DNA from: Burkholderiales bacterium
Lineage (GTDB): Bacteria > Pseudomonadota > Gammaproteobacteria > Burkholderiales > SG8-41
Direction of reading: 5' to 3'
NCBI GenBank assembly: GCA_035259205.1
Contig: DATFWO010000285.1
Location: 5,987-69,986, forward strand
DNA: 64,000 bases
Below, piece by piece: positions 18,898 through 57,016 of the stretch (the stretch's first letter is position 1; the number at the start of each line of letters is the position of its first letter). The position numbers were made by a program, and so were the translations under genes. The notes under the pieces are model-generated. The model did no database searches. It saw only the letters and a list, made by a program, of their open reading frames with translations, and was not told the origin of the DNA.

Positions 18898-18986
18898 GCG
18901 CAGAACTGCTGGCTGATGCGCGCTGAACGGTGGACCGTGAGCAGTGAACAGTAAACAGTAAACACTAAACAGTGAGCAGTTCTGCG
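18898..18986. repeat. Eight tandem heptamers (GAACGGT GGACCGT GAGCAGT GAACAGT AAACAGT AAACACT AAACAGT GAGCAGT) bracketed by an 11-bp perfect inverted repeat
   Basis: Heptamers at 18925-18980 read directly. CGCAGAACTGC (18899-18909) is the exact reverse complement of GCAGTTCTGCG (18976-18986). Lies just 3' of the Bug gene stop (18999). Confidence 0.85.
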
Positions 18987-23869: not shown

Positions 23870-23922
23870 ATTGTGGATTTGCTACCGTTCACCGCTCGCT
23901 AGGTTCTAATCACCGTTCACTC
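23833..23922. repeat. Heptamer array (GAACGGT CAACGGT GAACAGT AAACAGT GAATTGT) plus complementary arm (CCGTTCACC ... CACCGTTCACT)
   Basis: Read directly. The array encodes the last residues (...STVNSKQ) and the TGA stop (23867-23869) of the ligase. The right arm lies at 23881-23922. Confidence 0.8.
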
Positions 23923-29860: not shown

Positions 29861-31141
29861 ATGATGAATGAGGAAACCAACACACTGCTCACCCGCACCG
29901 GCCCCGGCACGCCGATGGGTGAATTGTTCAGGCGCTACTGGATACCGGCGCTGCTCGACTGGGAACTGCCCGAGCGGGATTGCGCTCCCGTGCGCGTGAA
30001 GCTCCTGGGAGAACGGCTGATCGCCTTTCGCGATTCGGAGGGCCGGATCGGGTTGATCGACGAGTTCTGCGCCCATCGCGGCGTCTCGCTGTGGTTCGGG
30101 CGCAACGAGGAATGCGGACTGCGTTGTCCGTACCACGGTTGGAAGTATGACGTGACCGGGCAATGCGTGGACCTGCCTTCGGAGGCCGAAGAAACGGGCA
30201 TGCGTGCGCGCATCAAGCTCAAGTCCTACGCTTGCGCGGAGGTGGGCGGCGTCATCTGGGCCTACATGGGCCCGCCGGCGGAGAAGCCGCCACTGCCGGG
30301 ATTCGAGTGGGTTCAACTGCCCCCGTCGCACCGCGTCGTCACCAAGCGCTGGCAGGAAAGCAATTACTTGCAGGCGGTCGAAGGCGGCATCGATTCGAGT
30401 CATGTGTCTTTCCTGCACCGGGGCGACATGGCCAGCGATCCGTTTCACAAGAACACCGGCGGCGCGAGGATGGTGAAAGCCACCAAGACCACATTCGACA
30501 TCGTCGACTCTCCCGGCGGCATGTTGATCGGCGCGCGGCGCGACGCGGAACCCGGCAAGCACTACTGGCGCATCACGCAATTCATCATGCCCTGGTATAC
30601 GCTGATCCCGCCCTATGCAAACAACGCCCTCAACGGCCATGCGTGGGTGCCCATGGACGACGAGAACTGCGTGGCATGGTCCATGACGTTCCATCCCACG
30701 GCGCCCATATCCGAGAAGGACGTCGAGCTGCTCAAGGACGGCAACGGGGTTCACGCCACCCTGATACCCGGCACCTTCCGTCCTCTGGCGAACCGCACCA
30801 ACGACTACCTGATCGACCGCGCCAAGCAGAAGAGCGGGCGCCATTACAACGGGGTCAGGGGCCTTGCCATGCAGGATGCATCGGTGCAGGAGAGCATCGG
30901 GCCCATCGCGGATCGGCGCACGGAGAACCTCGTCTCGACCGATAACGCGATCATCATGGCGCGCCAGCGGCTGATCAAGGCCGCGCAGGCGGTGCAGGAC
31001 GGCGGCCGCGCCCCGGGACTGGAGCCGGGCGACCAGCTCATACGGTCGGCCTCTCTTGTCCTGCCGGCGGACGCCGACTTCAGGCGACATGCGCTGGACG
31101 CGGTGAAGTACCGCAAGGGCGAGCCGCACGTGGCCGTCTGA
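29861..31141 (+). CDS. Rieske [2Fe-2S] non-haem-iron oxygenase, alpha subunit (phthalate/vanillate-type, no beta subunit)
   Basis: 426 aa. Rieske motif CAHRGVSLWFG...CPYHGWKYD. The catalytic domain carries H..SH / D motifs (DSSHVSFLH). Confidence 0.85.
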   Translation: MMNEETNTLLTRTGPGTPMGELFRRYWIPALLDWELPERDCAPVRVKLLGERLIAFRDSEGRIGLIDEFCAHRGVSLWFGRNEECGLRCPYHGWKYDVTGQCVDLPSEAEETGMRARIKLKSYACAEVGGVIWAYMGPPAEKPPLPGFEWVQLPPSHRVVTKRWQESNYLQAVEGGIDSSHVSFLHRGDMASDPFHKNTGGARMVKATKTTFDIVDSPGGMLIGARRDAEPGKHYWRITQFIMPWYTLIPPYANNALNGHAWVPMDDENCVAWSMTFHPTAPISEKDVELLKDGNGVHATLIPGTFRPLANRTNDYLIDRAKQKSGRHYNGVRGLAMQDASVQESIGPIADRRTENLVSTDNAIIMARQRLIKAAQAVQDGGRAPGLEPGDQLIRSASLVLPADADFRRHALDAVKYRKGEPHVAV

Positions 31142-34499: not shown

Positions 34500-35549
34500 C
34501 TACGCGGCGAGTCGCGGCAGCAACCGCAGCGCGTTGTCGCGGTTGATCGACTGCAACTCGCTGCCGGAAAAACCATAGGCAGCGAGTCCGGCCGTTTCAG
34601 CGGCGCCGTCCAGGAACGGATAATCGGTACCGTAGAGCACCTGCGACACGGGCGCGATCTTCATGAGCGCCGCGAGCGCGCCCGGGTGGTTGCCCTGCGC
34701 GGTGTCGTAGTAGAACTTCCGCAGCTCGTGCATGAGACCGTTCGGCATCTTCTCCTTGCTGTCCTTCGCCTCCGCTTCATGGCGCTGAAAGCGGGAGAGG
34801 AGGAACGGCATCACCCCGCCGCTGTGCGAGAAGATCCAGCGGATGTCGGGGTAGCGCGCCGCTGCACCGAGGAACATGACGCTCGCCATCGTGCGCGTCG
34901 TGTCCACCGGACCCTCGACGGTGTTGATCGATGTGAAGGGCGTGACCTTCGCGCAGCACGCCGGGGTGGTCGGGTGGGTATAGACGACCGCCTTGCGGCG
35001 GTTCAACTCCTCCAGTATCGGCCAGAACGACGGGTCGCCCAGCAGCTTCCCGCCGTAGCTCGTCATGAGGCCAATGCCCTGGGCCTTGAGCGTGTCGAAC
35101 GCGTAAGCGATCTCGGCCAGGCTGCCTTCGACATCGGCATAGGGCAGTGCGGCAAAGGAGCCGAAGCGTCCCTTGTGGTCGGCGACGAGGCGTGCAGCAG
35201 TCTCGTTGGCGTCGCGCGCGATCTTGCGACCGAAGGGCACGTCGCCGAAAGTGATTCCCGGTGGCGGCAGGGAAATGAGGGCGGTCGCAATGCCGCTCTT
35301 GTCCATCTCCGCCAGCGTGCCTTCGACTGTCCAGGAGACAGGACGGATCGAGTATTGCTTGAGCGCTGCGGTGTAAGCGGGCGACATGAAATGATGGTGG
35401 ACGTCGATGCGAAAGGGCTTCCCGGTCGTCTCCATCGTCTGGCAGCCCGGCAGCAGCAGGCCGGCGCTCAGTGTGGCGAACTTGCCGATGAAAGCGCGGC
35501 GCGGCAGCAGGTGGCGGTCACCGAAGTGCGTATCGTTCGAATTATTCAT
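34500..35549 (-). CDS. Amidohydrolase-2 family protein with twin-arginine signal and lipobox-like cysteine (tandem paralogue)
   Basis: 349 aa. LLPRRAFIGKFATLSAGLLLPGCQT, then RIDVHHHFMSP, ...VLYGTDYPF. Colinear with 33453-34496, 3-nt gap. Confidence 0.85.
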   Translation of the reverse strand: MNNSNDTHFGDRHLLPRRAFIGKFATLSAGLLLPGCQTMETTGKPFRIDVHHHFMSPAYTAALKQYSIRPVSWTVEGTLAEMDKSGIATALISLPPPGITFGDVPFGRKIARDANETAARLVADHKGRFGSFAALPYADVEGSLAEIAYAFDTLKAQGIGLMTSYGGKLLGDPSFWPILEELNRRKAVVYTHPTTPACCAKVTPFTSINTVEGPVDTTRTMASVMFLGAAARYPDIRWIFSHSGGVMPFLLSRFQRHEAEAKDSKEKMPNGLMHELRKFYYDTAQGNHPGALAALMKIAPVSQVLYGTDYPFLDGAAETAGLAAYGFSGSELQSINRDNALRLLPRLAA

Positions 35550-39971: not shown

Positions 39972-40553
39972 TCAGGCCGGAAAAAGCAGGAGGCAGCCTC
40001 CGAACACGCTGATCGCAGCGCCGCCAACGCGAACGAGGGGCTGGCGTTCCTTGAGTGCGGCCCCCGCGCCTATTCCGAGGGCGTGGAGCGTGGCGGTGGC
40101 GGCGAGTACGCCGGCAAGAAAGTGCCAGCCGAGCGCGAAAGCAGGCATTTCAGCGCCGTGGGCGTAGCCGTGAGCCAAGGCGAAAGCGGCAACGAGCGGG
40201 ATCGCCCAGTAGCGCGCCGCACGCATGGAAAACGCCACCAGGAGTCCCAGCGCCAGGACTGACAGGGCGATACCGCTTTCGACGCCGGGAATGGTGCCGC
40301 CCGACACGGCCACGGCGGCACCAGCTGCCACGGCCGTGACGAAGAGCAGCGGCACGGCCAGCACGTAACGCCCGCCGAGCTGCACGGCCCAGATTCCTAC
40401 TGCGACCATCGCGAGGAGATGATCCAGTCCCAGGAATGGATGCGTGAACCCCGCGGCGAAATCGCCGGCTGAATGAACGCCCACATGCGCTGACGCGGCG
40501 CCGCTCCCCAGCAACGCCGCAATCCCTGGGAGGAAACGAACTACACGGTGCAT
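39972..40553 (-). CDS. hupE: HupE/UreJ-family metal (Ni/Co-type) permease
   Basis: Track ORF trimmed to ATG 40553 (GAAGGAAG RBS upstream). 193 aa. Signal peptide ending ASAH, signature THPFLGLDHLL, multiple TM segments, AHGYAHG. Confidence 0.8.
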   Translation of the reverse strand: MHRVVRFLPGIAALLGSGAASAHVGVHSAGDFAAGFTHPFLGLDHLLAMVAVGIWAVQLGGRYVLAVPLLFVTAVAAGAAVAVSGGTIPGVESGIALSVLALGLLVAFSMRAARYWAIPLVAAFALAHGYAHGAEMPAFALGWHFLAGVLAATATLHALGIGAGAALKERQPLVRVGGAAISVFGGCLLLFPA

Positions 40554-40608
40554 TGCTGTTCTTCCTTCTGTCTTATGGGGCGCATTTGAAGCGCCGAGCA
40601 AAGCTGGT

Positions 40609-40655
40609 GTGACCCATCACTCATCACTGGCCCATTACTCATGACCCATCACCGA
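40609..40655. repeat. Short-period array of CCCATCAC/TCATCAC-type units (7/14-nt period)
   Basis: TGACCCATCACTCATCACTGGCCCATTACTCATGACCCATCACCGATC read directly, immediately 3' of the cupin gene stop (40658). Confidence 0.6.
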
Positions 40656-40657
40656 TC

Positions 40658-41272
40658 TCAAGCGGGTTCCTTGACCCTGCGCTCCAGATAGCGCCTGACG
40701 AGCTCCCCGGTGAGCACGACCTTGGCATCGTATTCGGGCGCGTCCTCGATCTGCTCGAGGTCATTCAGCCCGCTGAGGCGGTAGATGCGATTGATCGCGG
40801 AAATCAACCGTACCGGGCGCTCCGGATCGGCGTTGAAGTGCTGATGGATGGTGTTGGGGGGGATGTAGATCAGGTCGCCGGCTTCCCATTCGTAGCGCTT
40901 GATCTCGTCCTGCGCCTTCCAGTGATAGGTGTCGGTGATCTCGACGTCGCAATCCTGGTGCAGGTCGTAGCCGCGGCCCTCCAGCACGTAGAGGCACTCC
41001 TCGGCCAGATGCCGGTGCTTGCCGGAGCGGCTGCCGGGAGGGATGGCCTGCATGTAGGCATCCACGGTATCCATGCGCGTATTCATCTGCTCGTTCAGCA
41101 GATGCTTGAGCAGCCCCTGCCGGGACATTTCCCACGGCATTTCTTCGGGGTGCACGATCTTCTTGCGCTTGGCGTTCCGCATGGGGGCGCCGCTGGCGTC
41201 GTCGAGGAGATCCTGATAGAGCTTGCCACTCAACTTGCCGCGCATCCATGCCCTTGATTCATCCCAGGCCAT
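40658..41272 (-). CDS. Monocupin metalloprotein (cupin-2 type)
   Basis: 204 aa. Cupin motif 1 GSRSGKHRHLAEECLYVLEG and motif 2 GDLIYIPPNTIHQHFN. Confidence 0.8.
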   Translation of the reverse strand: MAWDESRAWMRGKLSGKLYQDLLDDASGAPMRNAKRKKIVHPEEMPWEMSRQGLLKHLLNEQMNTRMDTVDAYMQAIPPGSRSGKHRHLAEECLYVLEGRGYDLHQDCDVEITDTYHWKAQDEIKRYEWEAGDLIYIPPNTIHQHFNADPERPVRLISAINRIYRLSGLNDLEQIEDAPEYDAKVVLTGELVRRYLERRVKEPA

Positions 41273-41287: not shown

Positions 41288-41375
41288 GCGTAAGCGATAA
41301 ACGGTGAGCCGTGAGCAGTCTACAGACAGCGGCGCTCCTGCTCTCACCATACACTGTCCACTATTAACTGTTTGT
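41288..41375. repeat. Heptamer-type inverted element (..TAAACGGTGAGCCGTGAGCAG.. / ..CTGCTCTCACCATACACTGTCCACTATTAACTGTTTG)
   Basis: Read directly. The right arm overlaps the stop (41364-41366) and last codons (...HSTNS) of the 186-aa cupin gene. Confidence 0.65.
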
Positions 41376-41924
41376 CGAGTGGTTGTAGTCGTCCTCGGCC
41401 TCTCTTGCCCGGAAGCCTTCGGCGCCGGGCGCAGGCTCCGTGGGACGGGCCTCGACCAGCTTCTGGAAAAGCATGTTCATGAACAGGTACATCGGCTTGC
41501 TCTTGAGCACCAGCGCTCGCGCGGGTTTGGCAGGATCGGCGTTGAAATGCTGGTGGACGCAGTTGCTGTGGACGACCGCAACGTCGCCGGCCTGCCAGTC
41601 GTAGCGTATCCCGTCGTGGATCTCGTAACCGCGGCCGTCGAGTATATAGAATGCGGCCTCGTTAACGTGCCCGTGTTTTTGCGACTTGCCGCCGGGACCG
41701 TATTCTTCAAGGTGTATATGCAACGTCTGGCCGAGTCCATCCTTGGGCTCGACGTAGTGGCGGCTGTAGCACTGGGGACCGTCGACGAACTTGATCTCCG
41801 TGCCCTTCCTCACCCGGGGTAGCGAGCGCAGTCGCTTCAGCTCCTCCCTGAGATTGTAGTGACCGGCGATCGCCCGTACGAATATCCGGTCCTTCTTGCT
41901 GTGATAGTGCGATTCGTTGCTCAT
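41364..41924 (-). CDS. Monocupin metalloprotein (cupin-2 type)
   Basis: 186 aa. GGKSQKHGHVNEAAFYILDG and GDVAVVHSNCVHQHFN. Shares the W-x-AGD...HQHFNADP signature with 40658-41272. Confidence 0.8.
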   Translation of the reverse strand: MSNESHYHSKKDRIFVRAIAGHYNLREELKRLRSLPRVRKGTEIKFVDGPQCYSRHYVEPKDGLGQTLHIHLEEYGPGGKSQKHGHVNEAAFYILDGRGYEIHDGIRYDWQAGDVAVVHSNCVHQHFNADPAKPARALVLKSKPMYLFMNMLFQKLVEARPTEPAPGAEGFRAREAEDDYNHSTNS

Positions 41925-41943: not shown

Positions 41944-43014
41944 CTACCTGGCCTGCTTGGTAATGATCTCAGAATATAGTTTATTCCATTTATCGTTCTC
42001 GTCGAGTACCAGCCTGGGGTCGACGAGCTTGAGCGGCATTTTGTGCACCGGGGTGCTGATCTTCCTGTTGGCGGGGGTGAAATCGCGCTTGAGGAGCAGC
42101 TCCTGCGCGTCGGTCAGCATGAAATCGTAGAACAGAATGGCCGCGTGCGGATGAGGCGCGTTGCGCGCGAGGCCTATGCCCTGAAAGCGTGCAATGATCG
42201 GCGGCAGGGCGAACCAGTCTATGGGCGCACCGTGGTTCTTCAGCTGCTCGGCCTTGTATTGATAGACCGTCAGCGCCAACGGTACCTCGCCCGACACCAC
42301 CAGATTGGTGAGCAGGGTATGGCCCTTGCGCACCGAGATGCCGTTGGTGCCGACGATATCGCGAAAGAGCTTCAGGCCTTTTGCTTCGCCCAGGTCGCTG
42401 ATGACTCCCGCAAACCAGTCGAGGTCGCTCGCCTCGATCCCGAGCCTGCCCTTCCACCTGGGATTCAGCAGGTCTTCGTAGCTCTTGGGAACCTCTTCCT
42501 TCTTGACGAGCTTGGTGTTGTAGGCGGCCACGAAAACGTTGAGCCGCGTGCCCACCCATTCCCGGTGCTGGGGTATGGCCTGCGGAATCAGATCGGCCAA
42601 GTGGGGCGACTTGACCTCCTGGAGGAGTTTCTCCCGGTACAGGGATTCCATTTCGGGCGTGTTGGTTTCGAAGATATCGGCTTCGTAGCGTCGGGCACGC
42701 TCCTCGGACACGCCCCGGCGCACGATGTTCTCGGAGCTCGCGCGCCAGACCTGGATCTTGAGGCCGTATTTCTTCTCGAACGCAGACGTCAGCACGAGCA
42801 TGTCGTCGGGCGGTGCAGACGAGTAGACGGTGAGCGTCGCTTCCTTGCGTGCCGCTTCGATCAGCCGCGGGGTCCGGTCGGGGCCCGTATAGGTTGCGAT
42901 ATCGGCGACGGTGGCTGCGGCCAGGGCCGGTGCGCTGAGCAACGTCCCCACCAATCCGAGCAGCGCGCATGCGCCGATTCCCAAACGGTCTGCGAAGGAA
43001 AGCGTACAGGGCAT
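41944..43014 (-). CDS. ABC transporter periplasmic substrate-binding protein (family-1, Fe(III)/polyamine/phosphonate-type)
   Basis: Track ORF trimmed to ATG 43014. 356 aa. Signal peptide ...LLSAPALAAA, LTVYSSAPPDDMLVLTSAFEKKYGLKIQVWR is typical of AfuA/PotD-like binding proteins. Confidence 0.8.
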   Translation of the reverse strand: MPCTLSFADRLGIGACALLGLVGTLLSAPALAAATVADIATYTGPDRTPRLIEAARKEATLTVYSSAPPDDMLVLTSAFEKKYGLKIQVWRASSENIVRRGVSEERARRYEADIFETNTPEMESLYREKLLQEVKSPHLADLIPQAIPQHREWVGTRLNVFVAAYNTKLVKKEEVPKSYEDLLNPRWKGRLGIEASDLDWFAGVISDLGEAKGLKLFRDIVGTNGISVRKGHTLLTNLVVSGEVPLALTVYQYKAEQLKNHGAPIDWFALPPIIARFQGIGLARNAPHPHAAILFYDFMLTDAQELLLKRDFTPANRKISTPVHKMPLKLVDPRLVLDENDKWNKLYSEIITKQAR

Positions 43015-43101
43015 CGTCGGGTCAGTCGTCGATCGTGGGCATCGAGCATGATAGCCGGAAAGCGATCGCACCCGGCGCGATCCAGGAAATGGCGGGGCGT
43101 T

Positions 43102-44199
43102 TCATGCGAGCTCCGCTTCGTATGCCGCGTCCATCCGCGATTTGAGTCCGTGCTTTGCGAGCGCCTCGGAGAACGTCTGGCGGATCACCGGCTTCTCGTC
43201 GGTGTAGTCGATCTGGTCGCCGCCGAGCCGGCGGCTGATCCAGGCCTTGGGCACGCCCTGTGCGTTGCGGATGGCTACCGATTCGTACTTGAACGCGAGG
43301 TAGCGCGCCGGCGTGGTCCCGGTGTTGAAGTGCTGGTGAAACCACATGTTGGGCGGAACGATCATGGTCCCGACCTGCCAGTCGTAGCGCCGCGGCTCGT
43401 CCCCCTCCGGCCACATGAGGGTGTAGCCCTCGCCCGAGAGCACGATCACGTGAGCGCCCGGACCGTGCGCGTGGGCCTTCTTGTACGTGCCGACCGGAAA
43501 CTGGGAGATGTGGCTGTTCATCGATCCCTTCGCCATGTTGAACCGGATGTGCCCGCCGCCGGCACCGCGTTCCTTGGCGCTGATCAGCGGCAGGTTGACC
43601 GCGTCCGCGACGAAATTCGTGTCGAGCAGCAGGCCCTTCTGCTCGCCCTTGCTGCTGAAGTACTCGGGCTCGCCGGAAAACCGGTTCTTGAAGTCGTAGC
43701 GCGTGTTGAACACGAACTCGATGTCGTCGAACTGGTTCATCACCACCGGCCCGTTGGTGACGGCTACGTAGCGCGCGGGCTCCCGTCCGGAGCCGTTGAA
43801 ATGCTGGTGCCAGGTGTTGAGCGGGATCGCAAACAGCGCGCCCGCCTTCCACTCGAAGGTAACGCGGTTCCCGGCATCGTTCCATACGGTCGTCGAGCCG
43901 CGCCCGGAAAGGATCAGGATCATTTCCTCGAACAGCTGGCGCTGCGGCGCGAGCTGGCCCCCGGCCGGAATTTCGCAGATATAACAATCGTTGGACGTGC
44001 GTGACGCCTCGTGATTGATGTATACGCCGCGCCCGCCGCGCCGCGCCCATGGCCGCAGCTCCACCGCATGCAGGTTCGGCACGTGGTGCGCGCCGATGAT
44101 CTCGAGGCCTTCGCTGCGCACCCAGCGGGTGTATGGCGTGTCCTTTTCGGTGGCGAACTTCTTGGCAAACTCCTCTGAAACGATTGCGCTTTGGCTCAT
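43102..44199 (-). CDS. Bicupin protein (two cupin-2-like barrels)
   Basis: Track ORF 43102-44307 trimmed to ATG 44199 (the upstream part translates the heptamer array). 365 aa. N-module ...PQRQLFEEMILILSGRG...GALFAIPLNTWHQHFN and C-module ...KAHAHGPGAHVIVLSGEG...GTMIVPPNMWFHQHFN. Confidence 0.8.
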   Translation of the reverse strand: MSQSAIVSEEFAKKFATEKDTPYTRWVRSEGLEIIGAHHVPNLHAVELRPWARRGGRGVYINHEASRTSNDCYICEIPAGGQLAPQRQLFEEMILILSGRGSTTVWNDAGNRVTFEWKAGALFAIPLNTWHQHFNGSGREPARYVAVTNGPVVMNQFDDIEFVFNTRYDFKNRFSGEPEYFSSKGEQKGLLLDTNFVADAVNLPLISAKERGAGGGHIRFNMAKGSMNSHISQFPVGTYKKAHAHGPGAHVIVLSGEGYTLMWPEGDEPRRYDWQVGTMIVPPNMWFHQHFNTGTTPARYLAFKYESVAIRNAQGVPKAWISRRLGGDQIDYTDEKPVIRQTFSEALAKHGLKSRMDAAYEAELA

Positions 44200-44214
44200 A
44201 GCCTGCTCCGCTGA

Positions 44215-44330
44215 ATAAACAGTGAACGGTGAACAGTGAACGGTAGCGAGTAAACAGTAAATAGTGAACAGTAGATAGAAGTTGAACTGCTGGTCTTTCC
44301 CGTTCATCGTTCACTGTTCACGATTCACTG
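44215..44330. repeat. Ten tandem heptamers (ATAAACA GTGAACG GTGAACA GTGAACG GTAGCGA GTAAACA GTAAATA GTGAACA GTAGATA GAAGTTG) plus complementary arm CCGTTCA TCGTTCA CTGTTCA CGATTCA CTG, a long hairpin
   Basis: Read directly. The reverse complement of 44300-44330 (CAGTGAATCGTGAACAGTGAACGATGAACGG) matches 44220-44243 (CAGTGAACGGTGAACAGTGAACGG) apart from a 1-nt indel and mismatch. The right arm contains the ABC ATPase stop codon (44325-44327). Confidence 0.85.
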
Positions 44331-45428
44331 CCTCAGGGCCACGCACTTCTCCGGGTTCATGCGAGCGTAGATCTTCTCACCAACGGGGGTCCTGAGCGAG
44401 GGGTGGGCGCGCGCAAGCAGGACGCGCTCCCCGAGGCCGACCTGAAAATCGACGTGCTCGCCGAGGAATACCTTGGCACGGACGACGCCCGTGCGGACGT
44501 TGTCGGCATTGCGACTGTCAGGGACCTGCTCGGATAGCTCGATGTCCTCCGGTCGAACCGACAGGACGACGGTGTCGCCCGCATTCAGGATTTCCGCCGA
44601 ATTCGCCTCGAGCTCGCCGAGCTCCGTGACCACGCGGCACGCGCCATCCCGCCCCTCGACGGAAACGACCTGCGCATCGATGAAATTCGTGGAGCCGACG
44701 AAGTCGGCCACGAAGCGGTTGCGCGGCTGCTCGTAGATCTCGCGCGGCGTGCCGACCTGGATCAGCTCGCCCTCGCTCATCACGGCAATCTGGTGCGAGA
44801 GCGCCAGCGCCTCGCTCTGGTCGTGGGTGACGTACACGGTGGTATGCCCGAACTCCTGCTGCAGGCGCTTCAGCTCGAAGCGCATGCGCTCGCGCAGCTT
44901 CGCATCGAGGTTGGACAGCGGCTCGTCGAGCAGGAGCAGCCGCGGCTCCCGCACCAGCGCCCGCGCGAGCGCGAGGCGCTGCTGCTGGCCGCCGGAGAGC
45001 TTCGTTGCGTCGCGCTCCGCCAGATCATCGAGGCCGACGGCGGCGAGAACGCGCATGACCTTGTCCCGGATCTCTTTCCTGTCGTGCCCGCCTGCGACCT
45101 CGAGCGGGAACGCTGCATTTTCGAAGACGTTCATGTGCGGCCAGATCGCATACGACTGGAAGACCATGCCGAAGTTGCGCTTGTTTGGAGCGATGAACGT
45201 ATTGGTCGCGGACGAGTAGACGACGGCGCCGTGGACCGAAATTTCTCCGGAGGTCGGGCGTTCGAGGCCGGCGATGGAGCGCAGGGTGGTCGTCTTGCCG
45301 CAGCCGCTGGGACCGAGCAGGGTAAACCACTTGCCCGTCGGCACCTCGAAGGTAACATCGCGTGCGGCTCGGACGGTTGCGCCGTGCACACCCGGATACT
45401 CCGTGCAGAGCGCAGTTACCTTCAGCAT
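44325..45428 (-). CDS. ABC transporter ATP-binding protein (PotA/FbpC/MalK-like with C-terminal TOBE-type domain)
   Basis: Track ORF trimmed to ATG 45428. 367 aa. Walker A GPSGCGKTT, signature LSGGQQQR, Walker B LLLLDEP, H-loop VTHD. Confidence 0.9.
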   Translation of the reverse strand: MLKVTALCTEYPGVHGATVRAARDVTFEVPTGKWFTLLGPSGCGKTTTLRSIAGLERPTSGEISVHGAVVYSSATNTFIAPNKRNFGMVFQSYAIWPHMNVFENAAFPLEVAGGHDRKEIRDKVMRVLAAVGLDDLAERDATKLSGGQQQRLALARALVREPRLLLLDEPLSNLDAKLRERMRFELKRLQQEFGHTTVYVTHDQSEALALSHQIAVMSEGELIQVGTPREIYEQPRNRFVADFVGSTNFIDAQVVSVEGRDGACRVVTELGELEANSAEILNAGDTVVLSVRPEDIELSEQVPDSRNADNVRTGVVRAKVFLGEHVDFQVGLGERVLLARAHPSLRTPVGEKIYARMNPEKCVALRQ

Positions 45429-45527
45429 GTGCACGCCCCCGGAATGCTGCGGGTCCAAGAAGCGCCGCGGTGCAATACGCCGACGCTCCGGAACGAACGC
45501 CGCAGCGCTTGTCCATATTTGCTGAAG

Positions 45528-47282
45528 TCAGCTTCGCCCGTTGCGAGTTTTCTCATGATCGTGATGATAATGGCCATGCTCGTGATTCTGATCATGGTCG
45601 TGATGATGGGGATGATCGTGAGAATGCCCATGAGGATGATGGTGAGCATGACCATCGTGCGGATGCTCGTGCGGCAGTCGCGGGTCCGCCTTGAATACCA
45701 GGGATTTCACCGTGACCGGCACCGTTTGCGACGGCATCCGGATGCGGCCGAGGTCGACGTAGTCGAAATCCCAGAGCGTCACCCCGTCGATCACCAGGAT
45801 GTCGCTTTCGACTTTCATTTCTTCGCGCAGGATGGCGCCCAGGTTCTGGGCGATGTCGCCGTCGAGCACGATGAAGAGCGGCTTGCGCTGGGCGATCGTG
45901 TGCGCGAATCCCCGCGCAATGCCTGCGGCGAAGGCCGCGATCCTCTCGTAGGAGGGGGATCCGCGCCAGCGCAGCGCGATCGCCACCTCGGTTTCGCCTT
46001 CGACCAAATCGAAGGCGGTGTGATGGTCGCGGATCGCGCCCGCGAGCTGGTCCACGTCGATCCGGTCCGTGCAGTGGTAGGCCGGCTGCAGCACCTGGAG
46101 ATTCCTGCGTGGCAGCAGGATGCCCGGGTCGGAGATATAGATGGTGTTGCCCGAGAGCTGCACGCTGTACTCCGATGCGCCCAGCGCGGTCGCGCGTATG
46201 CACTCGCCGGGTGGGAGGAGTGGCCAGGGCAGGGCGCCGCCGTCGAGCTTGCGCCGCAGCGCTAGGCCGAGGAGGCGTCCCATGTCGCCGAAATCGCGCG
46301 TCTCCCGCTGATACAGGTATTCGGCGACGCCCCCCGAAAACATGACGCCGGCTATGCCCTCCAGATCCGGAAGGGGATCGGTCAGGTACAGACGTTCCAG
46401 AACCGGGGGCAGCGGCCGGGCAGTGATGCAGCCGAGCAAGGCGTCCGCCATGCCGTCCGCGACACGCGCCATTGCTTCCGGCGGCGCGACATCGCCGCGG
46501 CTCCAACGGTAACCGGCTTGCGCCGCAAGGTGGCGTCCGGCGGGGTCGAGCCGCACGATGCGCTGATTCGCGTTTACTACCTGCAAGCGCCCTCCGATGT
46601 GTATCGCAGCCGTTGCGGTTACCCGCCCGTTCTCGATCACTGCGAGCTTCGTGGTGCCGCCTCCGATGTCGATATTGAGCAGGCGTTGCCCCGCCTCGTG
46701 GGATGCCGCCGCGGCGCCGGAGCCGTAGGCGGCGAGCGTGGCCTCCATATGATGCCCCGCGGTCGCGCACACGAACTCCCCGCCCTGATCGGCCAGCAGG
46801 CCGGCGATGGTTTCTGCGTTCTCGCGCCGCAGTGCCTCGCCCGTCAGGATCACCACGCCCGCGTCGACATTGTCCGGATGCAGTCCGGCCTGCTCGTACG
46901 CGGTGTCGATGATGGCGCCCAGTCCCGCCTCGTCGATGCGCTCCTCGCTCTGGTACGGCGTAAGAGAGACCGGCGACTCGAACAACGTTTCCCGCGAGAC
47001 CACGAAATAGCGGCTGGAAAGGTCTTCCGCGAGCCGCCGCAGATTCAACCTCGAGAAGATGACCTGCGTGCCGGCGGATCCGATATCGATGCCTACGCTG
47101 ACCAGGGTAACGTGATCCTGCAGCCACAGCGGGTCCTCTTCGGCGGAGCCTGCGCCGTCGAAGTGATCGTGGTCGTGATCCGCGGCTTCGTCGCCGTCGT
47201 GCGTATGGTCGTAGTCTTCCCCGTAGCGGTGGTCCTCGAGCGTATGAGGCCGCCGCCGGGTCGCGTCGTTATTGTCTTCCAT
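45528..47282 (-). CDS. EutA-family (ethanolamine ammonia-lyase reactivase-like) ASKHA ATPase with His-rich N- and C-terminal extensions
   Basis: 584 aa. The core is colinear with my recollection of E. coli EutA (SVGIDIGSAGTQVIFSRL, LLNIDIGGGTTKLAV, terminal VPVTVKSLVF). Extra residues 1-56 and the last 52 are His/Asp-rich. Confidence 0.8.
   Translation of the reverse strand: MEDNNDATRRRPHTLEDHRYGEDYDHTHDGDEAADHDHDHFDGAGSAEEDPLWLQDHVTLVSVGIDIGSAGTQVIFSRLNLRRLAEDLSSRYFVVSRETLFESPVSLTPYQSEERIDEAGLGAIIDTAYEQAGLHPDNVDAGVVILTGEALRRENAETIAGLLADQGGEFVCATAGHHMEATLAAYGSGAAAASHEAGQRLLNIDIGGGTTKLAVIENGRVTATAAIHIGGRLQVVNANQRIVRLDPAGRHLAAQAGYRWSRGDVAPPEAMARVADGMADALLGCITARPLPPVLERLYLTDPLPDLEGIAGVMFSGGVAEYLYQRETRDFGDMGRLLGLALRRKLDGGALPWPLLPPGECIRATALGASEYSVQLSGNTIYISDPGILLPRRNLQVLQPAYHCTDRIDVDQLAGAIRDHHTAFDLVEGETEVAIALRWRGSPSYERIAAFAAGIARGFAHTIAQRKPLFIVLDGDIAQNLGAILREEMKVESDILVIDGVTLWDFDYVDLGRIRMPSQTVPVTVKSLVFKADPRLPHEHPHDGHAHHHPHGHSHDHPHHHDHDQNHEHGHYHHDHEKTRNGRS
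45531..45686 (-). other. His-rich C-terminal tail of the EutA-like protein (21 His in 52 residues)
   Basis: DPRLPHEHPHDGHAHHHPHGHSHDHPHHHDHDQNHEHGHYHHDHEKTRNGRS, counted by hand. Begins where canonical EutA ends. Confidence 0.85.
47133..47282 (-). other. Acidic, His-rich N-terminal extension of the EutA-like protein
   Basis: MEDNNDATRRRPHTLEDHRYGEDYDHTHDGDEAADHDHDHFDGAGSAEED: 7 His and 18 Asp/Glu in the first 50 residues (hand count). Confidence 0.85.
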
Positions 47283-47337: not shown

Positions 47338-49245
47338 CTAGATATCGCCGCACCCGCAGCCCAGCGACCAGGTGCCGGTTGCGCCGAACACCAGCGGCTG
47401 GGAGTGTCCCTGGGTAACCGGGGTCATGGCGGCAGCCGAGGCGAGCTTGTAGTACCCGCCGTATTGCCGCACCGGCAGCCAGTCCTGCACGACGGGCGGC
47501 AAACCCGGATCGAGCTTCGAATACGGGCCGGCGGCGTAGACGACTTTTCCACCGACCATCGTGAGCACGGATTCGAGGTCCTTGATTGCGTCCACCGGGA
47601 CAGAGAAGTAATCGGCCGAGAGTATCGCCAGGTCGGCGAGCTTGCCGGCCTCGAGCGTGCCTTTCTTGTGCTCTTCTGAAGACACCCAGGCCCCGCCTGC
47701 GGTGTAGAGGCGCAGCGCCTCCGTGCGGTCGAGCAGGTTGCGCTCGCCCTGCAGCTTCTCGCCCCCCAGCGTGCGGCCGGTGACCAGCCAGTGCACCCCT
47801 ATCCACGGGTTGTAGCTGGTAGCCCGGTTGGCGTCGGTGCCGCAGGCGAGCGGTATGCCCATCTCGCGCACTCGCGCGATCGGGGGCGCATCGGCCGCCG
47901 CCTGCGGGCCGTATTTCCTGACAAATGCCTCGCCATCGAGCGACATGCGGTTCTGGATATTGATGCTGCCGCCCAGCGCGGCGACGCGCTCGAGCGTTTT
48001 CGCCGAGAGTGTCTCGCAGTGATCGAGCCCCCACCGCAGGTTCTTGAGCGGCACTTCGCGGTTCACTCCCTCGAGCACGTCGACGATGCGGGTTGCCGAC
48101 GCGTCGAAGCTCGTGTGCTGGCGGAATGGCCAGCCCTGTCCCGCAAGATATTTGACCACTGCCGCCAGATTTTTCTCCATCACGCCGGGGGGTGGCACCG
48201 GATAGTCCTTGGCGAAATTCGCAACGTCGCCCGCGGCATACAGTATGTATTCACCCGCCCCGACCATACGATAGTAGTCGTTGCCTTCGCCGTATTTCAC
48301 CAGCTTGGACCACGCCGTGTAGTTCTCGATCTCCTTCCCCGGCGCCTGGGCGAAGAGCTGATAACCGATGCGCAACGTCATGTGCCCGTCGGCCGCCAGC
48401 TTTGCGATCGCCTGGTAGTTGTCCGGGTAGTTCTGGCCGCCGCCTCCGGCGTCGATCACGCTGGTCACGCCGAGCCGGTTGTGCTCGCGCATGAAGTGGC
48501 GGGTCGAAAGTATCTGATCCTCGGGGGGGAGGCGTGGAATGCGCAACCAGACTCCGACGAGGCTCGCGAGGCTGGTGGTCGATAGCACGAGGCCGGTCGG
48601 GTTGCCGCCGGCGTCGCGGTCGATCGTGCCGCCGAACATGTCTTTGGTCTCGTTGCTCCAGCCGAGCACCCTCAATGCCGCGCGGTTGAGCCACGCCCGA
48701 TCGTAGAGGTGCATTACCATGCACGGCGTATCGCCGGATGCCGCGTTGATCTCATCGAGGGTCGGAAAACGCTTTTCGGCGAATTGCGCCCAGGTCCATC
48801 CGCCGATCACCTGCACCCAATGCGGCGGCGGCGTGCGGCGTGCCTGCTCGCGCACGCGGCGCAGGCCTTCCGCGAGCGTAGGCACGCCGTCCCAGCGCAC
48901 TTCGTTGGTATAAGTGAGACCCCCGCGGATGAAATGAGTATGCGCATCGTTCAGTCCCGGGATGACCGTGCGGCCGGCTGCGTCGATCACCTTGGTCGCC
49001 GGACCGCGCAGTTGAGCGAGGTCCGTCTCGCTGCCGACGCCGATGATGGCCTCGCCCTTGACCGCAAGGGTCGTTGCGGTCGGCTGCCTGCGATTGAGCG
49101 TCGCAATGCGGGCGTTCACGATCATGGTGTCGGCCGGCCCCGCAGACCCGGCGACGGATGCGCACCCGCCGAGCATCGACCACGCCAGGAGGCTGCCGCC
49201 GCCGGCGAGCGAGTCGCGGATGAACTCGCGCCGCCGCGGGTCCAT
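47338..49245 (-). CDS. Amidohydrolase-3 (YtcJ-like) metal-dependent hydrolase with Tat signal and lipobox
   Basis: Only the C-terminal 635 codons of the 1105-aa track ORF are used. ATG 49245 gives MDPRRREFIRDSLAGGGSLLAWSMLGGCAS (RRxFI, LGGC), then GLNDAHTHFIRGG, ...ACGTDA.... Ends ...WSLGCGCGDI. Confidence 0.8.
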   Translation of the reverse strand: MDPRRREFIRDSLAGGGSLLAWSMLGGCASVAGSAGPADTMIVNARIATLNRRQPTATTLAVKGEAIIGVGSETDLAQLRGPATKVIDAAGRTVIPGLNDAHTHFIRGGLTYTNEVRWDGVPTLAEGLRRVREQARRTPPPHWVQVIGGWTWAQFAEKRFPTLDEINAASGDTPCMVMHLYDRAWLNRAALRVLGWSNETKDMFGGTIDRDAGGNPTGLVLSTTSLASLVGVWLRIPRLPPEDQILSTRHFMREHNRLGVTSVIDAGGGGQNYPDNYQAIAKLAADGHMTLRIGYQLFAQAPGKEIENYTAWSKLVKYGEGNDYYRMVGAGEYILYAAGDVANFAKDYPVPPPGVMEKNLAAVVKYLAGQGWPFRQHTSFDASATRIVDVLEGVNREVPLKNLRWGLDHCETLSAKTLERVAALGGSINIQNRMSLDGEAFVRKYGPQAAADAPPIARVREMGIPLACGTDANRATSYNPWIGVHWLVTGRTLGGEKLQGERNLLDRTEALRLYTAGGAWVSSEEHKKGTLEAGKLADLAILSADYFSVPVDAIKDLESVLTMVGGKVVYAAGPYSKLDPGLPPVVQDWLPVRQYGGYYKLASAAAMTPVTQGHSQPLVFGATGTWSLGCGCGDI

Positions 49246-55059: not shown

Positions 55060-55291
55060 AGCGACCTCCGTACGGTTTTGGCGCGGCCCTCCCCGCGGCG
55101 TAAGCGCCCATCCCTATTCACGAGCGACTACTGTGCCAGCGATGATAAACTACCAAAAATCAATTTGTTACTCGATTCGCTCGGCTGGCAGTTGTCGCCG
55201 TGTTGCGACGCCGGTCCGAGCGGCAAGCGCCAGCGAAATGATTTGCCGATTGTTTTCCTTTCGTTGATTGGCAACAGACCGGATTCGGACC

Positions 55292-57016
55292 ATGGCTCGC
55301 AAGCTCTCAGCAGCCAGCCGCAAAGCACGGGCTGCGCCGCTCAAGGTTTCTTCAACCGTCCGTCGCGCGACGAAGCGTGCCGCGCGCGGTTATGCGGATT
55401 TGCACGAGCACCTCGAGGCGCTGCGCCGGCGCGGGCTGCTGTTTACCGTAGAGCGTCCCATAGACAAGGACGCGGAGCTCCATCCGCTGGTACGCTGGCA
55501 ATTCGTAGGCGGTATCGAGGAACACGAGCGCAAGGCCTTCCTCTTCACCAACGTTACCGATGGCCGTGGCCGCCGGTACCGCTTTCCCGTCGCGGTCGGG
55601 GCGTTCGCGGGCAACCGCGCGATCTACGGTGTCGGCATGCGTGCGCCGCTCGGCGAAATACAGGAGCGGTGGGATCGCGCGATAGCCAATCCGATTCCGC
55701 CCCGCGTCGTCAGGAAAGCACGCTGCCAGGAGGTCGTGATCGAAGGCGCGGCGCTCAAAGGGGAAGGCAATGGCCTCGACATGCTGCCGATTCCGATCTC
55801 GACGCCCGGATTCGACGGCGCGCCTACCCTCACCGCGACCAACGTCATCACCAGAGATCCGGAATCCGGCGTGCAGAACCACGGCACCTACCGCGCCGGG
55901 CTCAAGGCACCGGACCGGCTGGTCGTCCGCATGTCCACGCGCACCGGCGGTGCGGGTGGCTATCGTCACTACCTGAAGCACCAGCGGCGCGGGGACAAGA
56001 CGATGCCGTGCGCGATTGCGCTCGGCTGTCCACCCTGTGTCGCCTTCGTCGCGCCGATGAGGCTGCCGCTCGACCTCGACGAGGTGACGGTCGCGGGAAG
56101 CATCGCGGGAGCGCCGATCAATGTCGTGCGCGCCCGGACGGTCGACCTGCTGGTGCCGGCCGAGGCCGAGATCGTGATCGAGGGCTTGATCGATACCGAA
56201 TACCTGGAACCCGAAGGGCCGTTCGGGGAATCGCACGGGCACGTTGCGCTCGAGGAATTCAACATGCCGATGCGGGTGACGGCGATTACGCACCGGCGCG
56301 ATGCCATCGTCGCCTCCTACATCAGCCAGGTGACGCCGAGCGAGTCGAGCGCGATCAAGCGCGTCGCGTACGAGCCGTTGTTTCTGTCCCACCTTAGAAC
56401 AGTGCTCGGCATACGCGGCGTGCGCCGCGTCACGTTGCACGAGCGCCTGACTAACCTGCGCCGCGTCGTGCTGGTAACGATCGAGAAGGGTACCCCGCGT
56501 ACCGAAATCTGGCGCGCGCTCTACGGCGCGACCTCGTTCATGGCCGATATCGGCAAGATCTGCATCGCGGTAAACGACGACATCGATCCCGAGAGCGCCG
56601 ACGCGATTCTCTGGGCTCTCGCTCTGCGCATGAATCCCGCGCGAGACCTTCAGGTGCTGCCCTATCGCAGCCTGGGCCACGGGCCGGAACGCGAGCACGG
56701 AGCGAGCAGTGACCGAACTGACGCCACGCTGCTTATGGACGCGACCATGAAGGAAGAGCTGCCCCCGCTCGCGTTACCGAAGCGAGAGTACATGGAGCGT
56801 GCGCGGAAGTTGTGGGAGGAGCTGGGGCTGCCGAAGCTGCGGCCGCAGTCCCCCTGGTACGGCGAGCCCGTGGGCGACTGGCTGCCGCAGTGGGACGAGG
56901 GTGCGAAGCGCGCTGTCGAAGGCGGCTACCTCGAGAACGGCCGCATCAGCGAGAAACTGAGGCGCAAGGGCCTCAAGCCTGAAACGCGCTTCAGGCCCAA
57001 AACCAGTGACCGGTGA
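55292..57016 (+). CDS. ubiD: UbiD-family (prFMN-dependent) reversible decarboxylase
   Basis: 574 aa from ATG 55292 (the track start is TTG 55268). YADLHEHLEALRRRGLLFTVERPIDKDAELHPLVRWQF is the typical UbiD N-terminus, preceded by a ~33-aa basic extension. No SD seen. Confidence 0.8.
   Translation: MARKLSAASRKARAAPLKVSSTVRRATKRAARGYADLHEHLEALRRRGLLFTVERPIDKDAELHPLVRWQFVGGIEEHERKAFLFTNVTDGRGRRYRFPVAVGAFAGNRAIYGVGMRAPLGEIQERWDRAIANPIPPRVVRKARCQEVVIEGAALKGEGNGLDMLPIPISTPGFDGAPTLTATNVITRDPESGVQNHGTYRAGLKAPDRLVVRMSTRTGGAGGYRHYLKHQRRGDKTMPCAIALGCPPCVAFVAPMRLPLDLDEVTVAGSIAGAPINVVRARTVDLLVPAEAEIVIEGLIDTEYLEPEGPFGESHGHVALEEFNMPMRVTAITHRRDAIVASYISQVTPSESSAIKRVAYEPLFLSHLRTVLGIRGVRRVTLHERLTNLRRVVLVTIEKGTPRTEIWRALYGATSFMADIGKICIAVNDDIDPESADAILWALALRMNPARDLQVLPYRSLGHGPEREHGASSDRTDATLLMDATMKEELPPLALPKREYMERARKLWEELGLPKLRPQSPWYGEPVGDWLPQWDEGAKRAVEGGYLENGRISEKLRRKGLKPETRFRPKTSDR

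Follow-up and report, generated by a model that had tools for sequence, protein, structure and literature searches.

A EutA-like ATPase with histidine-rich extensions is encoded beside cupins and may serve them as a nickel or cobalt insertion factor

Within 64,000 nucleotides of the genome of a Burkholderiales bacterium (GenBank assembly GCA_035259205.1, contig DATFWO010000285.1, positions 5,987 to 69,986; this whole stretch is referred to below as the window) we have identified a gene coding for a 584-residue EutA-like ATPase (45528..47282, minus strand) that carries histidine-rich extensions at both of its termini. EutA itself spends ATP to replace damaged cobalamin in its client enzyme. The protein described here is very probably a EutA paralogue dedicated to a two-domain cupin (bicupin) rather than a reactivase of ethanolamine ammonia-lyase (EAL), and we propose by analogy, with a probability of roughly 0.55, that it inserts nickel (or cobalt) into cupin enzymes, or reactivates them, in an ATP-dependent manner. 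What the analysis shows are the conserved sequence features, the intact ATPase motifs, the synteny with cupins, the proximity of nickel/cobalt transporters and NikR, and the lack of eutBC; we infer that a metal is bound, which metal it is, that its insertion or exchange is coupled to ATP, and that the bicupin is the client. The system is best classed as one that combines a EutA-type reactivase with a histidine-rich metallochaperone. Few nickel enzymes and few systems for inserting nickel have been described, and the clade of EutA paralogues reported here is a large one, with members linked to nickel/cobalt (Ni/Co) importers and to a bicupin that is very abundant and no better characterised.

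The ATPase core and its histidine-rich extensions

The open reading frame (ORF) starts with an ATG codon located nine nucleotides downstream of a Shine-Dalgarno sequence (GAGG), and its product can be divided into three parts. The central part, residues 57-532 (45687..47114, minus strand), is a EutA/ASKHA ATPase core recognised by Pfam, BLASTP and Foldseek. It matches Pfam EutA (PF06277) with 396.5 bits against a gathering cut-off of 27, residues 59-531 covering positions 2-475 of the 475-position model, and residues 60-532 align at 33% identity (BLASTP) with residues 6-467 of Escherichia coli K-12 EutA, from LxSVGIDIG to VPVTVKSL(V/A)F. The E. coli protein has five residues before the aligned block and two after it, and neither of the two extensions. 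The phosphate-1 (DxGxxxT/S), phosphate-2 (DxGGGT) and adenosine (GG) motifs that define the ASKHA superfamily are all present.

To place the protein among its relatives, an exhaustive HMMER search was made of 1.84 billion cluster representatives (50% identity), which gave 2,831 clusters at E ≤ 1e-3 and 890 at E ≤ 1e-30; a diverse set was taken as the 128 full-length representatives among the best 150 matches, with identities of 36-70%. Each of the 128 resembles the window protein more closely than it does E. coli EutA. The ASKHA residues D66, G68, D205, G207-T210 and G317-G318 are kept in at least 124 of them, with D66, E180, D205-G-G-G-T and G317-G318 in at least 126, and R232 is essentially invariant, and because these motifs vary so little across the set the EutA-like protein should bind and hydrolyse ATP. 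A motif of the form C-x4-H(H), found in the window protein as C172-x4-H177-H178, is typical of the clade (C172 in 91 and H177 in 79 of the 128); E. coli EutA has valine and proline at the C172 and H177 positions, and a sister clade described below (clade B) also lacks the motif. C172 and C361 are both invariant in the close clade, as judged from an alignment of 47 homologues, and C361 is present in only 15 of the 128 diverse representatives. A sequence search of the PDB found no EutA-family structure, and Foldseek with an AlphaFold2 (AF2) model recovered generic ASKHA proteins only (Ppx/GppA, HgdC, MreB and PilM at E values of about 1e-9, and HadI and sugar kinases).

The N-extension (residues 1-56; 47115..47282, minus strand) is made up of an acidic motif rich in His and, after it, an NPLWxQD linker that contains W53 and D56, and its first 50 residues include seven His and 18 Asp or Glu. 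The C-tail (residues 533-584; 45531..45686, minus strand) opens with DPRLPH, which is conserved, and from there is a run of His and Asp, with 21 His, six Asp and three Glu among its 52 residues; the intervening core has only 11 His in 476 residues (2.3%). Together with C172-x4-H177, the invariant His/Asp motif of the N-extension and the poly-His tail are candidate metal sites. Comparison of the C-tail with the nickel-binding tail of SlyD gives a weak match, driven by composition.

Conservation of the two extensions differs markedly. Among 5.8 billion proteins searched, 7,200 relatives scored E ≤ 1e-10, and the tails were compared in the best 120 clusters, which are 69-81% identical to the window protein and 538-608 residues long. 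DHDHD is present in the N-extension of all 120 and HxLxDH in 119, the full pattern being HxLxDH...HxH...DHDHD. In the 47-homologue alignment H13, D17, H18, G21, H26, H28, D35-H36-D37-H38-D39, W53 and D56 are invariant, and the N-terminal motif thus comprises six invariant His and five invariant Asp. The start of the C-tail is equally constant (xxDP(R/H) in 120 of 120), while the remainder varies from 12 to 72 residues with 0-36 His; at least five His are found in 93 of the 120 clusters, at least 20 in 21, and none in four. Among the 128 diverse representatives the N-extension contains at least three His in 70 and at least six in 34, His makes up 9.8% of the N-extension against 1.9% of the core, Asp and Glu together account for 22% of the N-extension, and 20 proteins begin with MH(D/E), the kind of N-terminal nickel motif that HypA carries; C-terminal poly-His outside the close clade is confined to three of the 128. 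On these alignments a large clade of non-canonical EutA proteins has the acidic His-rich N-segment among its traits, and the poly-His C-tail is a lineage-specific addition.

These results bear on most of what the initial annotation had said of the protein. The alignment of residues 57-532 with E. coli EutA, made there by eye, holds from end to end; the length of the N-extension and the residue counts for both tails are reproduced exactly, and so is the view that such tails are no hallmark of EutA. How widely His-tailed homologues are spread, a question it had raised, has a divided answer: an acidic, His-rich N-segment occurs across the wider clade and in the close homologues is a conserved sequence motif rather than only a biased composition, and the poly-His C-tail is lineage-specific and variable. 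The annotation had also allowed that the tails could be an artefact or be missing from close orthologues, and the presence of the N-motif and the C-tail start in all 120 close clusters excludes this.

That the tails are non-functional low-complexity sequence, or arise from faulty assembly or annotation (a wrong start codon or read-through), can for the same reason practically be dismissed. Both are predicted to be disordered (predicted local distance difference test, pLDDT, below 50 in an AF2 model that is itself of low confidence), and in one metagenome-assembled genome (MAG) of Rubrivivax (L080:9743-12139) a C-tail His/Asp repeat of more than 100 residues is broken by a run of N, after which the frame is lost; His/Asp-coding repeats can therefore break assemblies, though the window copy is clean. 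Against this, the N-motif is kept residue by residue in the 120 clusters and in 80 genomic loci, the start codon has its Shine-Dalgarno sequence, and the DPR that opens the C-tail is invariant. The tail-coding DNA in the window contains no N bases, keeps a clean frame and has only an imperfect 12/24-nucleotide periodicity, and thus gives no sign of an assembly artefact.

Association with cupins and with nickel/cobalt transporters

The genomic context of the EutA-like gene is not that of an EAL reactivase. With the four NCBIfam EutA equivalog models (NF007991-NF007994) the protein scores 314, 265, 212 and 199 bits, in each case below the cut-off (598, 769, 952 and 799). Searches with E. coli EutB, EutC, EutL and EutH (tblastn) found no homologue in the window (best E = 0.07) and none at E ≤ 1e-3 in 80 related loci from two proteobacterial classes, which bears out the initial statement that the window encodes no B12-dependent lyase and carries it over to the related loci. 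With scores under the equivalog cut-offs and no eutBC, eutL or eutH nearby, we rejected the role of canonical EAL reactivase. An ordinary reactivase of EAL, or of another B12 enzyme, whose client is encoded elsewhere in the genome would account for the full-length Pfam EutA domain and for the public annotations, but at 33% identity to E. coli EutA, with 314 of the 598 bits needed for the best equivalog, no eutBC, shell-protein or eutH genes in the window or the 80 loci, and synteny with cupins instead, we regard it as extremely improbable. Clade members (P0005, P0045, P0114, P0120 and others) are named in public databases 'ethanolamine utilization protein EutA' or 'ethanolamine ammonia-lyase reactivating factor EutA', and because the eutBC context is missing these names are apparently a systematic over-annotation.

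The 80 loci, each with up to 10 kb of flanking sequence, were scanned for partner genes by targeted tblastn and by an unbiased census of ORF families. They derive from Betaproteobacteria (Massilia, Noviherbaspirillum, Herminiimonas, Polaromonas, Sulfuritalea and Rubrivivax) and from Alphaproteobacteria (Xanthobacteraceae, Hyphomicrobiales, Beijerinckiaceae, Caulobacter, Devosia and Acetobacteraceae). A bicupin 73-84% identical to that of the window is encoded in 58 of the 80, on the same strand and at a median distance of 78 bp downstream of the EutA-like gene, and in many loci the gap between the two genes is only -25 to +16 bp. When only the 58 loci with at least 4 kb on both sides are considered, 53 contain a cupin of the set. 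Two monocupins, A and B, are present in 30 and 26 loci respectively, so that homology searching confirms a conserved bicupin and two monocupins as neighbours of the EutA-like gene, the check that the initial annotation had called for. Components of an ATP-binding cassette (ABC) importer are encoded as well (ATPase in 38 loci, two-domain permease in 36, periplasmic binding protein in 33), and the census further includes an IclR regulator (27), a thiamine pyrophosphate (TPP) enzyme (25), a class II aldolase (22), a UbiD-like decarboxylase (14), a LigXa-type Rieske oxygenase (13), a NicO Ni/Co transporter (13), and a Fer2-FAD-NAD reductase encoded directly upstream (19).

Such neighbourhoods, together with the many kinases and phosphatases among ASKHA proteins and the structural matches to Ppx/GppA and sugar kinases, would suit a catalytic, ATP-using subunit of an aromatic-acid pathway (a kinase, a carboxylase-like enzyme or an ATP-dependent isomerase) that acts with the cupins and whose tails are incidental. 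We think this quite improbable, for the family match along the whole length is to EutA, a protein-directed reactivase, no signature of a substrate-binding family was found, and this reading offers no explanation for the conserved His/Asp motif or for the Ni/Co transporters.

The upstream reductase raises a different alternative, in which the protein is an ATP-driven electron-transfer activator ('archerase') of the HgdC or BcrA/D type with a bridging Fe-S cluster, and would keep the cupin metal reduced by way of the reductase. In its favour, HgdC and HadI rank high in the structural comparison, the close clade keeps C172 and C361 without exception, and there is a weak match to Pfam BcrAD_BadFG (PF01869; 24.3 bits). 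This last score lies under the threshold of 31.5 bits, the scarcity of C361 in the diverse set and the absence of both cysteines from clade B leave no family-wide pair of cluster ligands, and a role as partner of the Rieske oxygenase encoded alongside explains the reductase better. The 'archerase' is thereby weakened to a very improbable candidate and, like the EAL reactivase with a distant client and the artefactual tails, is contradicted by the tests made in this analysis.

Pairing with a bicupin recurs in three clades of EutA-like proteins. Clade A, to which the window protein belongs, has the DHDHD N-motif and the poly-His tail, and its gene precedes that of the bicupin; clade B proteins are about 41% identical, have a His-free N-terminus (GGRIFFSN...EEEDEIRL) and are encoded downstream of their bicupin; clade C proteins are about 40% identical with an N-terminus of the type MHDxEFDHEHE. 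In a plasmid collection no member of the tailed clade was found, the only representatives there being of the 40%-identity clade. Thirteen loci (L006, L008, L009, L023, L026, L031, L039, L043, L046, L061, L071, L072 and L074) encode two EutA-like paralogues, each beside its own bicupin. From the distribution over the clades it is apparent that the partnership of EutA-like protein and bicupin is older than the tails, and because it also exists in sister clades without His tails, the tails would elaborate a function rather than underlie it. An operon in Oxalobacteraceae illustrates the arrangement, with the order bicupin2 - EutA-like(B) - periplasmic binding protein - NicO - IclR - reductase - EutA-like(A) - class II aldolase - permease - ATPase - cupin A - cupin B - bicupin1. 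Where the EutA-like protein is of clade B and has no His, its bicupin carries a conserved N-terminal His motif, (M)H...(T/S)HWHEP (L084:7693-8931, L009, L045, L046, L060, L061, L071 and L085), that is lacking in the bicupins of clade A; either the ATPase or its putative client thus seems to bear a His-rich segment. In one alphaproteobacterial MAG (L020:11768-12847) the bicupin gene beside the EutA-like gene contains an internal stop codon, reflecting either a pseudogene or a sequencing error.

The window bicupin (43102..44199, minus strand) has 365 residues and two Pfam Cupin_2 domains, and is the likely client. Environmental homologues 80-89% identical to it, some in clusters with hundreds of members, bear only a generic COG name. 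In the C-terminal cupin H243 and H288 are invariant across the bicupins of clades A, B and C, H245 and H290 are mostly kept, and H250 is kept in clade A; in the N-terminal cupin E76, E91, E92, N128 and N135 are invariant and the usual HxH is replaced by QxQ. The best PDB profile match is gentisate 1,2-dioxygenase (3bu7; E = 1.5e-6, or 0.002 with the single sequence), and spans only about 40 residues. Gentisate and salicylate 1,2-dioxygenases are likewise bicupins in which the C-terminal domain has an HxH...H site; the window bicupin differs in the degenerate ligands of its N-terminal domain, and with 34 bits against a cut-off of 650 for the NCBIfam 5-aminosalicylate dioxygenase it falls outside the gentisate 1,2-dioxygenase family. 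We know of no gentisate/salicylate 1,2-dioxygenase family member that needs an ATPase partner. Other remote relatives are auxin-binding protein, cupin phosphoglucose isomerases, oxalate decarboxylase and, marginally, acireductone dioxygenase, and a weak AF2 model retrieves generic bicupins including MncA with Foldseek. Because of its gene neighbourhood a role of the bicupin in aromatic-acid catabolism is suggested.

The link to nickel and cobalt comes from the importers encoded nearby. Within 10 kb of the EutA-like gene such importers are found in about 21 of 82 loci, belonging to three unrelated families (HupE, NicO and HoxN) in at least five different gene arrangements; 15 of the loci have transporters of the NicO/HoxN type, five have HupE, and two encode NikR (one Pfam-confirmed). 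The window itself encodes a HupE/UreJ-family Ni/Co permease (39972..40553, minus strand; Pfam HupE_UreJ, 172 bits) as the last gene of the apparent operon, and in four Alphaproteobacterial loci (L034, L060, L062 and L064) hupE is divergently adjacent within 200 bp. On a plasmid of Phyllobacterium zundukense (L084, RefSeq annotation) a clade B gene stands in the order cupin -> EutA-like <- HoxN/HupN/NixA, then NikR ->; a Rieske oxygenase alpha subunit, a ferredoxin and a class II aldolase precede the cupin in this arrangement, and IclR and a 2Fe-2S reductase are nearby. The hoxN-nikR intergenic region of this plasmid contains a NikR-box-like sequence, GTATGA-N16-TCTTAC, which is one mismatch away from the E. 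coli NikR operator. Cupin synteny and the proximity of HupE, NicO, HoxN and NikR back the reading implied at the outset, that of a possibly metal-handling EutA homologue which may work with cupins and with nickel or cobalt. In a further locus (L072:16838-20664) NikR is divergent from a 346-residue ORF without Pfam match, followed by a fused TctA/TctB transporter, and this may be a nickel-regulated tripartite transporter.

Proposed mechanism, precedents and contrary evidence

We envisage a EutA paralogue that no longer serves a B12 enzyme and would be a dedicated ATP-dependent accessory of the bicupin, and probably also of both monocupins. The N-terminal His/Asp motif would pick up a divalent metal supplied by the co-encoded HupE, NicO or HoxN permease, most likely Ni(II) and alternatively Co(II), and then hand it over, while the variable poly-His C-tail could store or buffer metal locally, as the tails of UreE, SlyD and HypB do. 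The actin-fold core would dock on the apo or inactivated cupin, and ATP binding and hydrolysis would open the buried cupin site so that the right metal can be put in, or one that is wrong or oxidised can be exchanged, in parallel to the ATP-driven swap of damaged cobalamin that EutA performs in EAL. Cupins are known to be prone to mis-metalation, a subject on which there is literature for MncA.

A number of observations weigh against this proposal. A Ni/Co transporter lies within 10 kb in only about a quarter of the loci, and many of the loci that have one are phylogenetically related. The clade B protein encoded beside HoxN and NikR has no His tails, and these are therefore not required for the partnership. 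In a scan of the window and 84 loci (1.54 Mb) for the NikR operator (GTATGA-N16-TCATAC, at most one mismatch) the Phyllobacterium site was the only one found, with 0.9 expected, and because a single site equals the chance expectation, nickel-responsive regulation cannot be generalised to the other loci or to the window. Asp/His repeats also occur in zinc and cobalt proteins, and the metal is thus not settled. The characterised nickel and iron cupins (acireductone dioxygenase, quercetinase and gentisate dioxygenase) are not known to need a chaperone. Among the diverse representatives the C172/H177 motif does not co-vary with N-terminal His richness (Fisher p = 0.59). Finally, shallow alignments left both AF2 models with low confidence (pLDDT 63.7 for the EutA-like protein, 56.5 for the bicupin), and the Foldseek matches are therefore generic only.

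Some of the same observations would fit a reactivase that delivers no metal and instead re-opens or repairs the inactivated bicupin, for example by freeing it of a tightly bound product or of a metal that is oxidised or wrong, with the His segments serving to buffer, sense or dock. The precedent of the family, in EutA, is release and exchange of a cofactor and not its delivery, the pairing with cupins exists in clades without His tails, and the C-tail is dispensable in some orthologues. We nonetheless consider this unlikely, as 11 invariant His and Asp residues in the N-motif and Ni/Co importers within the same operons point to metal supply, beyond removal alone.

For metal insertion there are precedents on two sides. 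With EutA the protein shares a homologous full-length ATPase domain with conserved ASKHA nucleotide-binding motifs, and likely also the logic of an ATP-dependent accessory that services the cofactor site of a partner enzyme; it differs in scoring under the equivalog cut-offs, in the lack of eutBC or microcompartment context, in its 56-residue N-extension and 52-residue poly-His tail, and in having a bicupin as partner and presumably a metal ion as the cofactor, rather than adenosylcobalamin. With UreE, HypB, SlyD and HypA it shares disordered and variable His/Asp tails that are dispensable in some orthologues, and a conserved N-terminal His motif. In HypA the conserved nickel site is an N-terminal MHE, and UreE and SlyD have variable His-rich tails of which that of UreE is dispensable (PMC7055735). 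Like the nickel metallochaperones, the EutA-like gene can be found near nickel importers and NikR together with a candidate metalloenzyme, and this linkage of nickel uptake and regulation to a putative client is of the kind seen for UreG, HypB and CooC. Fold and sequence are unrelated to those of the nickel metallochaperones, however, and the proposed client is a cupin in place of urease, hydrogenase or carbon monoxide dehydrogenase. The known nucleotide-dependent nickel chaperones are P-loop G3E GTPases or MinD-type ATPases (PMC9164220), and the EutA-like protein, with its ASKHA fold, has no Pfam or NCBIfam match to either domain.

COG0523/CobW GTPases are nucleotide hydrolases with (D/H)n stretches that have been proposed to metalate clients with cobalt, zinc or iron, a likeness that stops at the fold, the EutA-like protein having neither a P-loop nor a CxCC motif. 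HscA and Ssq1 (Hsp70) are actin-fold ATPases that assist cofactor transfer and are the sole ASKHA entry in a review of NTPase metallochaperones, which otherwise covers only P-loop GTPases and ATPases, Hsp70 being included for Fe-S transfer (PMC9164220). The EutA-like protein has no Hsp70 substrate-binding domain and no relation to Isc, and its putative metal-binding segments are on the ATPase itself. An actin-fold insertase for metal ions would be new, since only P-loop NTPases and Hsp70 (for Fe-S) appear in that review. A full-text literature search for EutA paralogues associated with cupins, nickel or His tails brought up no paper; the EutA-family literature covers the reactivase role only, and most other papers that mention 'EutA' concern ectoine utilisation.

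It is thus a tentative suggestion, which we hold with less than even confidence, that these proteins are the first nucleotide-dependent insertases for metal ions to use the actin (ASKHA) fold and a sixth Ni/Co maturation machinery besides UreDEFG, HypAB, CooCJT, LarBCE and the COG0523 proteins, with clients that form a new and environmentally abundant family of nickel or cobalt enzymes in soil Alpha- and Betaproteobacteria and are possibly oxygenases of aromatic acids. If the proposed metal maturation holds, the cofactor-swapping logic of B12 reactivases has been reused for bare metal ions, cupins are a new class of clients for metal-maturation systems, and there is a new metal-dependent step in the catabolism of aromatic compounds in soil. 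Whatever the function proves to be, the systematic mis-annotation of this clade as EAL reactivating factors is corrected, and cultured strains that carry these genes exist in which the hypothesis can be tested, among them Massilia niastensis DSM 21313 (L046), Noviherbaspirillum humi U15 (L050), Caulobacter sp. S45 (L074) and Phyllobacterium zundukense A18/3m (L084).

Neighbouring genes and repeats in the window

On the minus strand the genes are ordered Meth_synt_2-like, Amidohydro_3, EutA-like, ABC ATPase, bicupin, periplasmic binding protein, cupin A, cupin B and HupE/UreJ. The Amidohydro_3 protein (47338..49245, minus strand; Pfam), which has a twin-arginine translocation (Tat) signal, is encoded directly upstream of the EutA-like gene and is local to the lineage, outside the conserved core; a gap matching it in size and position occurs only in the closest relative (L057), the size of the gap alone having been compared. 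The ABC transporter ATPase (44325..45458, minus strand) has ABC_tran and TOBE_2 domains, and the periplasmic binding protein (41944..43071, minus strand), assigned by Pfam and NCBIfam to the Fe3+/2-aminoethylphosphonate/polyamine type, probably serves in substrate uptake. The window keeps these two components and lacks the two-domain permease (tblastn negative across the 64 kb), which in 36-37 related loci directly follows the EutA-like gene (compare L010:11779-13527); the same loss is found in L057 and also in L058 and L069. Monocupin A (41364..41924, minus strand; 186 residues) has the motif HGHxxxE...H and monocupin B (40658..41272, minus strand; 204 residues) the motif HRHxxxE...H, both by Pfam assignment.

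The hupE gene is preceded by a ribosome binding site, GAAGGAAG, and has a terminator-like hairpin at its end (40001-39989). In the region between the cupin B gene and hupE (40600-40650) the sequence GATGGGTCA occurs twice as a direct repeat, the copies being about 31 bp apart, and it is possible that this repeat is an operator ahead of the Ni/Co permease gene.

Further genes in the window have catabolic associations. A LigXa-type Rieske oxygenase (29861-31141, plus strand) is 57% identical to that of the Phyllobacterium cluster, a UbiD-like decarboxylase (55268-57016, plus strand) is the one that recurs in the related loci, and there are an Amidohydro_2 protein (34500-35549, minus strand) and at least four Bug/TctC binding proteins. 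Taken together, this gene content suggests an island for the catabolism of aromatic acids, in a genome that resembles those of Burkholderiales.

The region between the ABC ATPase and bicupin genes (44200-44325) contains a tandem heptamer, GTTCAC(T/C), in about eight copies that are preceded by about four inverted copies, and the array folds as a long hairpin (-44.7 kcal/mol, z = -4.3). The repeat is also present at 18937-18963 and 23845-23871, giving 12 matches in the window where 0.15 would be expected, and is found in none of 85 fetched loci; it looks like a strain-specific element of the repetitive extragenic palindromic (REP) kind.

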